Of a DNA stretch of 64,000 nt, positions 2,234 through 18,615 are shown in pieces. The notes under the pieces are model-generated. The model had not been told where the DNA came from. It saw only the letters and a list, made by a program, of their open reading frames with translations, and made no database searches. This DNA is from Oligoflexus sp. (GTDB lineage: Bacteria > Bdellovibrionota_B > Oligoflexia > Oligoflexales > Oligoflexaceae): the NCBI RefSeq assembly GCF_035712445.1, contig NZ_DASTAT010000115.1:25583-89582 (forward strand). The letters run 5' to 3'. A program made the position numbers and the translations under genes. Numbering within the stretch: the first letter of the stretch is position 1; every line of letters starts with the position of its first letter.

Positions 2234-3598
2234 TTACCAACTCTTTATGATCAAATGGGGGCGGGCGCTTTTCCAGCTGATTTGACCCGAAGAGACGGGA
2301 GCCACTTCCTCGGGGGAAACGAGTTCCTCGGGGAAAGGACCGTTATACTGGATCACGCTGTATTGGTAGTCACCAGTTGGCAGACGGAGTTTCTTGGACT
2401 GGCCATTGGAGATTTGAAATTCCATCTCGCTGGCCACGCTGGAGCGCACGTAAATGTTTGCATCCCGGTAGGCATTCACAAGTCCGGGAGACGCGGCGCA
2501 GGTTGAGCTGCCCTTGCTCTGCACCATTTCCAGTTCCATCGCGATCAGCTGGCTTTCCGTCTGTTCCGAGAAGAGCGGATGCCAGACGCAAGGCAAGGAC
2601 GAGTTGGGCTGGTCGGCAGAGGAGATGTAAGGAGTTTCGATCGGCTGCAGCGTGACGAGGTAACCCTTGGCCATGCTTTGATCGCGAGGAATGCTGAGGG
2701 TGAAGAGACCCACGAGGCTCGCATCTTCGATACGGTGCGAGAGAGCCTGGATTTCCTGAGCGGCTTCCTGAATGGCGACCAGAGCCGCATCGCGATCCCG
2801 ATTCTTGCCCTGGCAGACTTTGTCCTGCCAGAGTTTGGAACGGAAGCTGAGAGGCAGTTCATTGGGCAGGGAGAAACGCATGATCCGGCAAACCTTGTCG
2901 AGTTCCGTGCGTTTTTCCGGGCGTTCGAAAGCCTCGAGCAGCTGCGTGGTCAAAGTCAGACGACGGATCAGAAGATAAGGCTGATGATTCCACTTCGTCG
3001 TCATGTTGCGTTTGATTGTTTCGAGCGAAGCGAAAATTTCCGCATCCGAAGGCCGTGGGAGTTGGCAAACGAGGCCTTTTTCCTCGGTCCATTCGAAGTT
3101 GCAGTCCGGGGCCAGAAGCTTCAGAGGCTGCAGGATTTCGCGCGCGCCCGGGGATTCCCGACCGAAGGTGATCGAGGATTCCTCGTGATGCTCACAGAGG
3201 AGCGCCGAAGCGAGTTCATTCGGCAGATGATCGTATTTCAGGGTATAGCGCTGCGGATGAACCTTGATATCAAGCTCATTGCCCTTCTTGTTCACAAGCT
3301 TCGTGTAGTCGATATCAAAGCGGTGCTGACCGAGGACCGACGTCATGAAAATGGACCACTGCTGCGGGAAACCATTCTCGCAACTTTCACGGTCGTATTC
3401 ACCGATATAGACGTTGGCATTCGTCGAGGATTTCAAATAGATCTTCACGCTTGAGCTGAAGTTGGTCTTCTGCTCAGGCGAAGCATTTCCATTGGCATTG
3501 GGTTGCGGATCCAAAAGGTACTGGCAGCCCCAGAGAAGGGCGAAGAGGCCACCGAGTCCAGCGGTAAAGCGCATCCGTGATCGAGAGCGACGGCTCAT
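2234..3598 (-). CDS. Hypothetical Cys-rich probable lipoprotein
   Basis: 454-aa ORF; basic N-terminus, hydrophobic stretch and LLWGC lipobox-like motif; no family recognised. Confidence 0.65.
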   Translation of the reverse strand: MSRRSRSRMRFTAGLGGLFALLWGCQYLLDPQPNANGNASPEQKTNFSSSVKIYLKSSTNANVYIGEYDRESCENGFPQQWSIFMTSVLGQHRFDIDYTKLVNKKGNELDIKVHPQRYTLKYDHLPNELASALLCEHHEESSITFGRESPGAREILQPLKLLAPDCNFEWTEEKGLVCQLPRPSDAEIFASLETIKRNMTTKWNHQPYLLIRRLTLTTQLLEAFERPEKRTELDKVCRIMRFSLPNELPLSFRSKLWQDKVCQGKNRDRDAALVAIQEAAQEIQALSHRIEDASLVGLFTLSIPRDQSMAKGYLVTLQPIETPYISSADQPNSSLPCVWHPLFSEQTESQLIAMELEMVQSKGSSTCAASPGLVNAYRDANIYVRSSVASEMEFQISNGQSKKLRLPTGDYQYSVIQYNGPFPEELVSPEEVAPVSSGQISWKSARPHLIIKSW

Positions 3599-3628
3599 AC
3601 GACTCCATATCTGATTTCAAGGTCGCAA

Positions 3629-4102
3629 TTAGAATGTGGAAACTTTCTGTACAGCCAGATCCACAGCTTCATTGAACCCGCCGAGAGAAGGATTCGAGGA
3701 TTCCACAGACCATGACAGAGGCTGACACAGCTGCAAAACCTTGCGGGATACCACGTAACCTTCTTCATTCTCGGTGATCAGGTGAATATCCTTTGGACCA
3801 AATTTTCGACTGGTCTGATTTTTCGCCCAAAGGTAGAGCGAGGGGCTGGTGACGAATTCCCGGCTCAGACGAACAGTTTCAAAGCTGGCTTTGGCGGCCA
3901 AAGGAAAGCCGTCCTGCGCAAACTTATCAATACCTTCAATATTATCAAAGGGGCCGTAATCCACCCCGTCGATTTCAACATAAGTCGTGAGCACGGGCGG
4001 CTTGAGGGCTGCCTTGATGGAATTCACTCCCAGCAAGACAAAAAGACTCAACGCGCTCATACCTACGGCTGCTCGTTTCAGCAGTGTTGCCCTGCGGTCC
4101 AT
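3629..4102 (-). CDS. Phage tail-tube (T4 gp19/Afp1-like) fold protein with N-terminal signal/TM segment
   Basis: YVEIDG..GPFDNIEGI, VRLSREFVTSPSLYLW, KDIHLITENEEG.VVSR.VL...QPLSWS and EAVDLAVQKV match the gp19-family pattern by eye; residues 1-32 are hydrophobic. Confidence 0.65.
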   Translation of the reverse strand: MDRRATLLKRAAVGMSALSLFVLLGVNSIKAALKPPVLTTYVEIDGVDYGPFDNIEGIDKFAQDGFPLAAKASFETVRLSREFVTSPSLYLWAKNQTSRKFGPKDIHLITENEEGYVVSRKVLQLCQPLSWSVESSNPSLGGFNEAVDLAVQKVSTF

Positions 4103-4264
4103 TGGACTCCCAGTACCATAAGATCTGAATTGATGGATTCACTAACAGCATAGCATAGCAACCTGGGTTTTACCTCCCATGTGACGCATTTTTTTGGAAA
4201 TAAAATCCAAAACTGCGCTTAAGGTAAAACCAAAGCCCGCGAACAGGATTTTCCAAGGCAATCG

Positions 4265-14804: not shown

Positions 14805-15970
14805 GCGAGCAGCTCCTGGTCCTCGGATTGGCTCCAGGCGGCAATGCTCATTTCACTGACGAAGCGCCGCTCCCGATCAAAACGTTTTTTATCGCGGCGG
14901 AACGGTAATTTCAGGGTTTTCTGACGGTTGACCTGTTCCGAGCGCCAGATGATGGTCCAGGTTCCATCGTCCTGAACGGGCAGGATTTCAAGGATCAACT
15001 CACCCGGTCCTGGACGCAGCGGCGCGTTTTCCGGTTCAGGCTGAGCACAGGGAAATTGTTCGTGGCTTTCCAGACGAATGCTGCTGTTCCCGATTTTCCT
15101 CCAGGCCTGGCCCAGACGATCGGCGAAGGCTCCCGAGGAACCGGAGTCCTTCACAATGATGTGCGAGAACGCATGAAAGCGCGCCAGGAGACGATCTATG
15201 CTGTCTTCATCATCACGGCCGATGAGCCAGGGGCTCAGGGCTGCATTCAGTTTATCGAGCCAGGGCTGATTCTTAACGAGTTCGCTTTCCCGGCACCAGA
15301 TTTTCACTTCGATATAAGGCGCGTGCGGCCTGTACCCTGATACCATCGTCGATCCTGCGATGGCGGCCTCGACGATTTCGCCCACGGCCGATTCGCTTTT
15401 GCCGATCAGATGCCAGCGGAACAGACGGAAAGCATCGCTGTCGCGACCGAGCTCCAGGAGCTGTCTTTCAATGCTGCTCTTCCAGATGGCTTTGATTTCC
15501 TCGGGCGGACCGGGAAGGATCCAGACCTGGAGGTCCTTTCTTTGCAGATAAAAAGCGTCGGCTGTGCCCGCGGGATTATCAAGGACACGCGACTGGCTGG
15601 GAAAATAGCACTGCTGCTTATTGGATTCGGGCGGTGTAATGCCGAGCATCTGAAAGCGCTGGATAATTTTTTCCCAGCTGCCGGATTGGAATTCCAGAGT
15701 ATCCCCCCACCAGCGGCTGACCACCTGCCGGGTGATATCATCGGTCGTCGGACCCAGTCCGCCGGTGATAAAAAGCAGCCGCGTGCGGGCGGCTGCCAAA
15801 TTCAAGGCGTCGGTCATTTCCCGTTCATCATCGGGGACTGCCAAATGCCAGACGGGGTTCATCTTCAGATTGACGAGCTGATCGGCGATCCAGGCGGCAT
15901 TGCTGTTCACGATCTGCCCGGTGCTGACTTCGGTGCCGATGGTGAGAATACTGGCGCGTAATGGTTCCAT
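14801..15970 (-). CDS. cinA: CinA-like competence/damage-inducible protein (MoCF domain plus degenerate C-terminal domain)
   Basis: ILTIGTEVSTGQIVNSNAAW, TGGLGPTTDDIT, NPAGTA, LPGPPEE; start reassigned to ATG 15970. Confidence 0.85.
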   Translation of the reverse strand: MEPLRASILTIGTEVSTGQIVNSNAAWIADQLVNLKMNPVWHLAVPDDEREMTDALNLAAARTRLLFITGGLGPTTDDITRQVVSRWWGDTLEFQSGSWEKIIQRFQMLGITPPESNKQQCYFPSQSRVLDNPAGTADAFYLQRKDLQVWILPGPPEEIKAIWKSSIERQLLELGRDSDAFRLFRWHLIGKSESAVGEIVEAAIAGSTMVSGYRPHAPYIEVKIWCRESELVKNQPWLDKLNAALSPWLIGRDDEDSIDRLLARFHAFSHIIVKDSGSSGAFADRLGQAWRKIGNSSIRLESHEQFPCAQPEPENAPLRPGPGELILEILPVQDDGTWTIIWRSEQVNRQKTLKLPFRRDKKRFDRERRFVSEMSIAAWSQSEDQELLA

Positions 15971-16045
15971 ATTATTCTCCGTCCCCAGGGGAATGACAAA
16001 AGCTCCGGCGTTGCGGCCCAGGGTCTGGCGGCAAAGCTGTAGGTG

Positions 16046-16074
16046 AGCATAAAAGAGCAGAGGTCCTGTGTCAA
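16046..16074 (-). promoter_or_regulatory. Sigma70-type promoter for the cinA-lpxK unit
   Basis: Minus strand TTGACA-N17-TATGCT. Confidence 0.6.
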
Positions 16075-16152
16075 AGCCTTGACAGACTCTGCCTTTTGAC
16101 GCCTTTGTGGCATACAATAGAACTGTCAAGGTTTACATGGCAGGAGTTCCCG

Positions 16153-17154
16153 GTGGCAACCAATAAGTACAGTGGCGCGCAAAAAGCAGCGATTCTTCTT
16201 CTCTCTTTCGGTGAAGAGATTTCCGCCGAAATCTTCAAGAGCATGACCGAGTTTGAGATCAAACGCATCGGTAGCGCCATGAGTCGCCTCGGGCGCCTGG
16301 AGCAGGAAATCATCGACGAAGTGATGATGGAATTCTACGGAATCCTGCAGCAGAACAAAAAGTTCTTCTATGGCGGCAACGACTTCACGATGAAGGTCAT
16401 CGGCAGCGCCTTCAAAGGCGGCGAGGCGGATGAACTCATTGAGCAGTTGGCGCTCGGTTCATCGGCGAACCTGGATGCCCTGGAGCTGATTGATCCGAGG
16501 ACCCTGACCAACTTCATTCGGAACGAGCATCCGCAGACGATCGCTCTGATCCTGGCCCACCTTGATCCGCAGAAGTGCGGCGAGGTCCTGAAGCTTTTGC
16601 CGGAAGCCTTGCACACGGAAATCATCCTGCGCATCTCGAACCTGGATGCCGTGGCTCCCGAGATCATCGACGAGATTGATGATGTTCTGCGCAACGAAAT
16701 TCAGGCCATGGGTTCGATTTCGAGCCAGAAGATCGGTGGCGTGGAGCCCATCGCCGAGATGCTCAACCTTATTGATAAGGCCACGGAAGAGCAGATCCTC
16801 GACAACCTGGAAGAACGTGATCCGGATCTTGCCGAGCAGATTCGTCAGCTCATGTTCGTCTTTGATGACCTTGCCAAGATTGATGATCGCGGCATCCAGG
16901 AAATCATCAAGAATGTGAAGCCCGAGCAGTGGATGACGGCCCTGAAAACAGCGTCCGAAGCCGTGTCCGAGCTGGTATTCCGCAATATGTCCGAGCGTGC
17001 CGCGAAGATGCTGAAAGAGGATATGGAGGCGATGGCCGCTGTGAAGCTTTCCGACGTGGAATCGGTGCAGTATGAAATCGTTCAGGTGGCGCGGAAGCTG
17101 GAAGAGGAAGGCAAGATTATCATTGCTCAGGGTGGTGAAGCGGCTTACGTTTAA
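16153..17154 (+). CDS. fliG: Flagellar motor switch protein FliG
   Basis: GAQKAAILLLS, EHPQTIALILAHL, MFVF motif, FRNMSERAAKMLKEDM; GTG start 6 nt after AGGAG. Confidence 0.95.
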   Translation: MATNKYSGAQKAAILLLSFGEEISAEIFKSMTEFEIKRIGSAMSRLGRLEQEIIDEVMMEFYGILQQNKKFFYGGNDFTMKVIGSAFKGGEADELIEQLALGSSANLDALELIDPRTLTNFIRNEHPQTIALILAHLDPQKCGEVLKLLPEALHTEIILRISNLDAVAPEIIDEIDDVLRNEIQAMGSISSQKIGGVEPIAEMLNLIDKATEEQILDNLEERDPDLAEQIRQLMFVFDDLAKIDDRGIQEIIKNVKPEQWMTALKTASEAVSELVFRNMSERAAKMLKEDMEAMAAVKLSDVESVQYEIVQVARKLEEEGKIIIAQGGEAAYV

Positions 17155-17277
17155 GCCGGGATTGATGCTCTTTAACCCTCTGGAATCCTTGGGACAAATT
17201 CGAAATATCTTAAGGAATTCCAAGCCTTGGCCGAAGCTGAATCGTAGCGCAAAAGCGCCCCAAGTACGAGGAAAGCC

Positions 17278-18615
17278 ATGGCCAATCAGAACCGTCAGCT
17301 GCTGAAGAAACGCGCGCAAAGGCGGGAACTTTATCTGGGTGAGAATGTTCGTGCGTTTTTGATCCTGGGCGGTTCGCGAACGGTGGGTGGCGAGGTGATC
17401 AGCCTTTCGGAATCAGGCCTCGCTTTTGTGTGCGAACCTCAGGTCGATGCCGAGCTGCCGATCGGCCGCGTCGTGCAGCTGAAACTCTATTATGATGCCC
17501 GCCGTTATTTTACGACCTCCGTGGAAATTCGGAATAAGAGCGTTTTCAGCTCACAGGGCTCGCAGTATCTGCGGGTCGGTGTGTCGGCTGCGGCCGGTGA
17601 ATCGGTGAGCGATGCCGAGGATCTTGTGAAGAAGGTGGAAGCATCCATCAACCTTGGCATGGATACCTGCGGTTTCCTTGAAATTGAAAATCCCATGTTC
17701 TTTGATGAGCATGATTACTTCAGCATCCGTGCGGTGCATCCTGAATTCATCCTCGTCGCCCCTTTGGAAAATCGACACTTTCTTTTGCCTGGTCAACCCG
17801 TGGAAGCGCGATTCAACATCCCCGGTTCCACCTCGTTCGTGGAGGACCTGATCGTCGATCGCTCCGTGCCCGATCGCGACTGGTGGGCGTCGGATGTTCT
17901 GATGCTGAACTTCGCGCAGAAGTCGGAAAAGACTCTGGCAAAGATCGCGAAGATGGCCATGATTCAAAAACCGCAGCTGCATGTGCAGGAGATCATGAAG
18001 GCCGGGTTTCCGATTCCCTATCTGGATTTTTTGCTGCGGGTCCAGTTTGCTGCGCGTGACAAGGATGATCCCCAGGTTGCGATGCTGAAGAGCAGCTTCT
18101 TCGCGCCGGGGCCCTACCTTGCGGAGCAGGATCTGAAGAGCGCGCGGGTGCTGTCGTTTTATCGGCAGAATACCTTGATTGCGACGATGAAGCTCAATTT
18201 CGTCCCCGATGTGCGGCAGAGCTCGGCCTTTTATGGGTCAGGCGTCTATAATCATCAGTTCTATCGCAAGTCGGTGGTCGAGATCCTTGATTTCAAACAT
18301 CATCCCGAATATCCGCTGCCGTCCATTCTGGTGCCGATCATTCAGCAATGCCTGCGAGCCTCGATTCAGGCGGATTTCAGTTTCCTTGTGTTCGAATGTA
18401 CACAGCAGACCGAGAATATTTTTCATCGCATGGGATTTACCACGCTTAAAACGCCCAGTCCTGGGCCTGCTGACCGTTGCTTTGTCAGCCTGGGCATCAA
18501 GCAGGGCCTGTCCGGCCTGACCAGCGGAGTGCATCATGACACCTGGGAGCGGGTTTATAAAAGACTGCACGCCTATCTGAATCGCAAGCACCCGCTCGCG
18601 AGGAACATCGCTTGA
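17278..18615 (+). CDS. PilZ-domain protein with C-terminal GNAT/FeeM-like domain
   Basis: RAQRR (RxxxR) plus SLSESG (D/NxSxxG-like) c-di-GMP motif; C-terminal half has an acyltransferase-like pattern ending in IFHRMGF. Confidence 0.6.
   Translation: MANQNRQLLKKRAQRRELYLGENVRAFLILGGSRTVGGEVISLSESGLAFVCEPQVDAELPIGRVVQLKLYYDARRYFTTSVEIRNKSVFSSQGSQYLRVGVSAAAGESVSDAEDLVKKVEASINLGMDTCGFLEIENPMFFDEHDYFSIRAVHPEFILVAPLENRHFLLPGQPVEARFNIPGSTSFVEDLIVDRSVPDRDWWASDVLMLNFAQKSEKTLAKIAKMAMIQKPQLHVQEIMKAGFPIPYLDFLLRVQFAARDKDDPQVAMLKSSFFAPGPYLAEQDLKSARVLSFYRQNTLIATMKLNFVPDVRQSSAFYGSGVYNHQFYRKSVVEILDFKHHPEYPLPSILVPIIQQCLRASIQADFSFLVFECTQQTENIFHRMGFTTLKTPSPGPADRCFVSLGIKQGLSGLTSGVHHDTWERVYKRLHAYLNRKHPLARNIA

Follow-up and report, generated by a model that had tools for sequence, protein, structure and literature searches.

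A predicted exported protein of the phage tail-tube fold, encoded beside a cysteine-rich lipoprotein in Oligoflexales

To our knowledge, phage tails, eCIS and T6SS all have tube proteins that are synthesised and put together in the cytoplasm, and export of this fold by Sec has not been described; our literature searches returned ordinary eCIS and T6SS tubes only, and no account of a Sec-exported tube protein. In published tube structures, the tube hairpin makes the contacts from ring to ring and towards the lumen. Hcp, the tube protein of the T6SS, forms stand-alone hexameric rings and also serves as a cargo chaperone. Here, we describe a protein of this fold from Oligoflexus sp. that appears to be exported. 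In the window, by which we mean the whole stretch of 64,000 nucleotides that was analyzed, the list of open reading frames and the sequence place its gene at positions 3629..4102 of the minus strand (157 aa plus stop). The first-pass annotation had suggested that the product may be a tube fold that was domesticated and is now sent to the envelope, an interpretation supported here by profile and fold homology, a conserved predicted signal peptide, strong purifying selection on a single-copy gene throughout the order, an accompanying lipoprotein, and a genome without eCIS or T6SS. The reading that we favor, to which we give a probability of roughly 0.6, is that the protein is an exported component of the envelope that belongs to no contractile injection system, probably a non-polymerising oligomer tethered by the lipoprotein.

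We found that residues ~37-157 are a divergent gp19/Afp1-type tube domain, the kinship first noticed as a pattern of motifs over the same residues. The match to curated families is weak: Pfam PF06841 (Phage_T4_gp19) aligns with residues 67-134 of the window protein with an E-value of 0.0058 and 16.9 bits, below the cut-off of 28.2, TIGR02241 scores 13.4 bits with a threshold of 62.4, and a search of PHROGs gave no match. Close relatives number ~108 homologues, nearly all of 146-159 aa, and 26 of the 36 family members that were aligned match PF06841 at E <= 0.01, the best of them at 9.6e-08. When the family profile was searched against 1.84 billion representative proteins, it gave 203 hits at E <= 0.001, and its distant matches are canonical PF06841 proteins scoring 62-149 bits. 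A profile HMM of the mature domain, from which the N-terminal segment had been removed, scores canonical gp19 proteins at 38-60 bits.

Structure prediction of the monomer, proposed at first pass together with the Pfam search, confirmed the tube fold, a beta-sandwich flanked by a single helix. The AF2 model of the window protein, computed from the family alignment, has a pLDDT of 92, with strands at residues 39-56, 75-81 and 104-156 and a helix at 89-99. The best Foldseek match in the PDB is the AlgoCIS chain 7aeb_Y (E 1.8e-6, 20% identity, probability 1.0). Also found with probability 1.0 were the tube chains of Afp and PVC (6rao, and 6j0b_a, which is Pvc1), the CIS tubes of Streptomyces and Anabaena, tail proteins of phage 812 and many Hcp proteins. 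All 27 chains matched at E <= 0.001 come from tubes or are of the Hcp type, and their target-normalised TM scores are 0.5-0.66. A search of PDB sequences with the family profile matched no solved tube protein, so the kinship with tubes emerges only by way of intermediate sequences and from the fold. Its fold, together with remote homology in sequence, places the protein in the gp19/Afp1/Pvc1 superfamily.

One region that departs from known tubes is the one corresponding to the long tube hairpin, which lies between the N-terminal strands and the central strand. Alignment with canonical PF06841 proteins locates a remnant of this β-hairpin at residues 58-73 (IDKFAQDGFPLAAKAS; positions 3884..3931, minus strand). 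The interval between the conserved Gly57 and Phe74 comprises 16 residues in the window protein and 10-16 in the family, with some relatives having 10-12; in the seven canonical PF06841 proteins that we aligned, it comprises 26-28 residues in five, and 21 and 15 in the other two. The impression from the first reading that the hairpin is shortened was therefore correct: five canonical gp19 proteins out of the seven in the alignment have a hairpin that is 10-16 residues longer. Additionally, the alignment shows this region to be the most variable and indel-rich stretch of the family, and the AF2 model has no long hairpin at residues 58-73. Since the hairpin provides stacking contacts in known tubes, its shortening suggests that the ability to polymerise into long tubes has been lost.

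At the other end of the protein, a signal-like hydrophobic segment had been noted in residues 1-32, and our data extend this observation to the whole family. The ATG at 4102 is preceded, 4 nt upstream, by a Shine-Dalgarno sequence, GGGAG (4107..4111, minus strand), and residues 1-31 (4010..4102, minus strand) are predicted to form a Sec signal peptide with a signal-peptidase I site. They can be divided into an n-region MDRRATLLKR, an h-region AAVGMSALSLFVLLGV and a c-region NSIKA, with cleavage predicted at IKA|AL; this site was placed by the -3/-1 rule and is a rule-based assignment only. The same architecture is found in 105 of the 109 family sequences, and ~40 residues precede the tube domain. 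In these 105 homologues, the net charge of the n-region has a median of +3, while the h-region is uncharged, with a median length of 16 residues (15-19) and a mean Kyte-Doolittle value of 2.3, and gives way to a short polar segment. Ala occupies position 31 in 106/108 sequences, and position 29 (-3) is I, L or V in 96/108; past the predicted site, position 32 is A, G or S in 100/108 and position 33 is F, L or Y in 105/108.

Two other ways of reading the N-terminus were considered and rejected. A true start downstream of the hydrophobic segment, which the first-pass annotation had set against its own proposal, would have to use the sole in-frame candidate, a GTG (V37) that has no Shine-Dalgarno sequence and is not conserved. 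Export by the Tat pathway, which calls for a conserved twin-arginine motif (S/T-R-R-x-F-L-K), was discarded because the RR of the window protein (DRRATLLK) is not conserved, relatives having, for instance, YRN, TRS or KRP. As a separate observation, the [ILV]-x-A-[AG]-[FLY] motif at residues 29-33 is nearly invariant, above what is usual for signal-peptidase sites; judging from this sequence conservation, the motif, in its [ILV]-x-A-[AG]-[FL] form, may have a role beyond cleavage.

The two parts of the protein evolve differently. In a comparison with a genome of the same genus, the signal region has a dN of 0.119 and a dS of 0.092, and the mature tube-fold domain, which comprises residues 32-157 (3632..4009, minus strand) as delimited by AF2 secondary structure, Foldseek and the mature-domain HMM, has a dN of 0.015 and a dS of 0.60, corresponding to a dN/dS of ~0.025. 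A leader that drifts fast yet always stays hydrophobic, placed on a constrained domain, has the look of a cleaved signal. The main competing view of this segment is that it is not cleaved at all and acts as a signal anchor, in which case the protein would be bitopic in the inner membrane, with the tube-fold domain on the periplasmic face. An h-region of 15-19 uncharged residues lies at the long end for signal peptides and AF2 draws residues 3-32 as one continuous helix, two features that make an uncleaved anchor possible, and the strongly conserved A-[AG]-[FL] motif may serve a purpose other than cleavage. However, stable transmembrane anchors are usually longer than the median h-region of 16 residues, the polar c-region, in which -1 is near-invariantly small and -3 aliphatic, follows the classic signal-peptidase I pattern, and the segment evolves much faster than the mature domain, as cleaved signals do. 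We therefore consider a membrane anchor unlikely, albeit the strongest of the competing explanations, and retain a cleaved Sec signal as the preferred reading.

The gene is a stable feature of its order. Searching 131 genomes of the phylum, most of them MAGs, with the family profile, we found exactly one gene-sized copy in 89 of the 94 genomes that represent the order besides that of the window, and no copy in the 37 that belong to other orders; the five genomes of the order without a copy are 59-92% complete. Named relatives of the gene come from Oligoflexus, Pseudobacteriovorax and Oligoflexales MAGs. Taken together, the dN/dS of ~0.025 and the presence of a single copy throughout the order indicate a core, vertically inherited gene that is neither mobile nor decaying.

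We also looked for an injection machine that the protein could serve. On the contig of the window, there is no match to a sheath, gp25, baseplate-J, TssC, Hcp or Pvc16 protein, in line with the initial remark that no sheath, baseplate, spike or phage genes lie nearby, and in relatives the gene is found in contexts of housekeeping genes only. Extending the search for sheath and baseplate genes to the entire assembly (7.27 Mb, 97% complete), as had been recommended, we found no Baseplate_J, TssC (PF05943), Hcp (PF05638) or Pvc16_N, no PF06841 match over the cut-off, and one match only to the family profile. Sheath and gp25-like matches occur on contigs C11 and C92 only, in two loci that are P2-like prophage tail modules, each with its own FII tube (PF04985); an eCIS locus was not found. 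The tube gene can thus be rejected both as the missing tube of these sheath loci, given that both have their own, and as the tube of a T6SS or eCIS encoded elsewhere, given that the genome has no TssC, Hcp, Baseplate_J, Pvc16_N or second gp19.

These results bear on the possibility that the protein works in the cytoplasm as a normal tube subunit of a prophage or cryptic injection system encoded elsewhere, or is a decaying remnant of such a system, and that its hydrophobic N-terminus is an artefact of annotation. The two sheath-bearing loci of the genome could be taken to favor such an origin. Nevertheless, both are P2-like modules with FII tubes of their own, eCIS and T6SS markers are absent from the assembly, and a relic is hard to reconcile with a single-copy, syntenic, order-wide gene with a dN/dS of ~0.025. 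Nor does an annotation artefact fit an N-terminal extension that is open and signal-like in 105 homologues and a Shine-Dalgarno sequence placed at the first ATG. We regard this explanation as very improbable.

The prophage modules have features of their own that are worth recording. They extend over C92:12000-26482 (locus L113) and C11:9000-15439 and are of the P2-like myovirus type. The module on C92 encodes gpV, a gp25-like protein, the sheath, the FII tube, a gpE-like chaperone, the tape measure, gpU and gpD, and is followed by a gene that we take to encode a serine recombinase. Its sheath is split over two adjacent open reading frames, 14993-15883 and 15887-16645, the first of which ends in a Pro/Thr/Asn-rich stretch. 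Between the sheath and the FII tube lies a collagen-repeat gene (PF01391, E 1.7e-25) at 16642-17829, whose product bears a signal peptide; we know of nothing that normally separates the sheath and FII tube genes in P2-type tails.

Our analysis also uncovered a conserved partner for the tube gene. The first-pass annotation had called the gene solitary, with ridA and a lipoprotein gene as neighbors; the neighbors are as described, but the gene is not solitary, being one half of a conserved pair with the 454-aa lipoprotein gene that lies directly downstream. This second gene occupies positions 2234..3598 of the minus strand and encodes a protein with a lipobox (LLWG|C25) and a Cys-rich mature part; its Shine-Dalgarno sequence, GGAG (3603..3606, minus strand), lies within the 30-nt spacer that follows the stop codon of the tube gene. 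Upstream of the tube gene is ridA (PF01042, E 5.5e-44), preceded by genes for a TPR protein and aspS, and an FMN reductase gene comes after the lipoprotein gene.

Several features of the partner point to a location outside the cytoplasm. Its signal ends in the lipobox, in which Cys25 is nearly invariant and the -1 position is G or S across 19 relatives. Six further cysteines (C73, C135, C166, C178, C237 and C262) are invariant and two more are nearly conserved, and these eight conserved cysteines suggest a disulfide-bonded protein residing in an oxidising, extracytoplasmic compartment. Directly after the lipid-modified Cys, most sequences have Gln and none has Asp. Lipoproteins are sorted in E. 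coli by a rule that is of uncertain validity in the phylum of Oligoflexus; by analogy with it, an outer-membrane location is suggested for the partner. The sequence has no match in Pfam, NCBIfam, PHROG or the PDB. Its AF2 model (pLDDT 81) comprises a beta-sandwich, a helical bundle and a C-terminal beta domain and Foldseek searches of PDB and BFVD with it gave nothing significant; the top hit, a T6SS baseplate chain with an E-value of 0.099 and a TM score of 0.13, was dismissed as noise. The partner is 85% identical to a protein from Oligoflexus tunisiensis, which agrees with the origin of the window in an Oligoflexus.

Synteny with the 454-aa lipoprotein, which had been suggested as a check, is pronounced. 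A profile of the partner matches 82 genomes, and in 79 of them, related genomes of one order, its gene lies directly downstream of the tube gene on the same strand; the three exceptions lie at contig ends. Because the genomes are related, these counts are not independent of one another. In each of six homologue loci that we fetched, the gene next after the tube gene encodes a protein of ~440-480 aa. Common descent within a single order could account for much of this adjacency, the window-type flank of the pair being aspS-TPR-ridA; the pair is nonetheless retained at one locus whose flanks differ, around a homologue that is 40% identical, with nusA-infB-rbfA upstream and unrelated genes downstream.

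The association has limits that are informative about the relative importance of both genes. One genome without a match to the partner profile (G045) has a divergent 382-aa homologue at the same place. In two others, the lipoprotein was found neither beside the tube gene nor elsewhere: in G048 (L028:1293-1850) the tube gene is followed by murD, and in G013 (L031:2953-3438) only 300 nt separate it from ffh. Both are small genomes of 2.2 Mb, and in both the tube gene is intact, with its signal segment. Since at least two genomes keep the tube gene without the lipoprotein, the partner is not strictly required, and of the two it is the tube-fold protein that is less readily dispensed with.

The gene calls at the junction of the pair deserve a comment. 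In several relatives (L009:8428-8471, L010:8434-8477 and L012:8422-8465, as well as L013:8434-8477 and L015:6124-6167), the lipoprotein has been called from a start 44 nt inside the tube gene, so that its N-terminus seems to carry a conserved extension, MNQWxWPFKKF... By comparison, the corresponding frame is closed in the window (3599-3628), and the lipoprotein starts 30 nt past the stop codon of the tube gene. Overlap with the conserved C-terminus of the tube protein probably makes the extension an artefact, although real translational coupling of the two genes is possible in the genomes where the overlap is called.

We propose the following model. The protein would be made with a Sec-type signal peptide, cross the inner membrane and be cut, most likely after Ala31, leaving a mature domain of ~126 residues to fold in the periplasm. 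There, it may form a small oligomer, most likely a ring, which the analogy with Hcp and with the rings of tubes would make a hexamer. The combination of a conserved tube-fold core with a hairpin that has lost 10-16 residues points to such a small oligomer rather than to a long tube. In most lineages, the disulfide-rich lipoprotein, probably in the outer membrane, would tether or organise the tube-fold protein. The resulting assembly could be a bushing, a pore, a chaperone or a structural element, all of which are possible.

A different outcome would follow if the subunit were secreted further and polymerised outside the cell into a sheath-less tube or fiber, with the lipoprotein as its base or anchor. 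In this regard, the tube-fold core is kept, and full-hairpin gp19 proteins with classical signal peptides in other phyla make exported, polymerising tubes conceivable. Nonetheless, the hairpin of the Oligoflexales family is short by 10-16 residues and is the least conserved part of the protein, and we saw no outer-membrane secretion component linked to the pair in the six homologue loci. We consider an extracellular polymer distinctly unlikely, less so than the cytoplasmic or relic explanation and more so than the membrane anchor.

Our preferred reading, a small periplasmic assembly tethered by the lipoprotein, invites an evolutionary scenario that we put forward tentatively, as possible rather than probable. 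In an ancient exaptation, the ancestor of Oligoflexales would have captured a tube subunit of a phage or contractile injection system, which gained a Sec signal and lost its stacking hairpin, and the resulting core component of the envelope, a ring-shaped assembly in the periplasm or outer membrane (bushing, pore or chaperone), would have come to be organised by a lipoprotein of new fold, as one branch of a wider class of Sec-exported tube-fold proteins in several phyla. If true, it would offer a clear example of how a structural module of viral origin can be recruited to serve the cell envelope. The findings also define a two-gene module, made up of a tube-fold protein and a lipoprotein whose fold has no match, with Oligoflexus tunisiensis and Pseudobacteriovorax antillogorgiicola as cultured carriers, and they point to a broader set of exported tube-fold proteins outside Oligoflexales.

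Among described systems, the inner tubes of eCIS (Afp1, Pvc1 and AlgoCIS; PF06841, TIGR02241) share their fold with the Oligoflexus protein (Foldseek E-values of 1.8e-6 to 1e-4, 15-20% identity), have a domain of similar size, and have in common with it the motifs E-I-D-G, L-x-R, L-x-x-W-x-K, C-x-P-x-x-W and E-x-hydrophobic-x-L-A-V. Unlike them, the Oligoflexus protein has a signal peptide, a hairpin 10-16 residues shorter than in most canonical members and a Pfam score below threshold; no sheath, baseplate, spike or cap is encoded alongside, and its gene, which is paired with that of a lipoprotein, belongs to the single-copy core and is inherited vertically. The tail tube of T4, gp19, is the founder of PF06841 and has the same fold. 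In contrast to this virion protein, which assembles in the cytoplasm on the baseplate, the Oligoflexus protein has no phage context, and it carries an export signal and a short hairpin. The fold is likewise common to Hcp of the T6SS (Foldseek matches 6bdc, 8gra, 3eaa and 5xhh), and the ring and chaperone roles of Hcp offer a possible functional analogy. However, Hcp has no signal peptide and exits through the T6SS rather than by Sec, while the Oligoflexus genome has neither a PF05638 match nor TssC. In curated score, long hairpin, CIS context and absence of a signal, the Oligoflexus protein departs from functional tube subunits, and these departures collectively set it apart from their family.

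Further parallels come from canonical PF06841 proteins that carry both a full hairpin and a classical signal peptide (P0222, P0227, P0229, P0242 and P0253, at 110-121 bits). Further signal-bearing members include P0200, a tandem protein, P0246 and P0224, and some of these proteins are in tandem or fused to other domains. In a Symbiobacteriaceae MAG (L035:1481-1990) and a Dehalococcoidia MAG (L051:7950-8492), a gp19 gene of this signal-bearing type stands alone among metabolic genes. As in the Oligoflexus protein, the signal directly precedes the gp19 domain. Unlike the Oligoflexales family, these proteins have the full hairpin, and no lipoprotein partner was seen in the two loci inspected. A closer kinship of the Oligoflexales family with signal-bearing than with signal-less gp19 proteins was considered and rejected, because the scores of the mature domain do not separate the two groups; export may therefore have arisen more than once. 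The Oligoflexales family is probably one branch of a wider phenomenon, in which gp19-type proteins of several phyla carry export signals.
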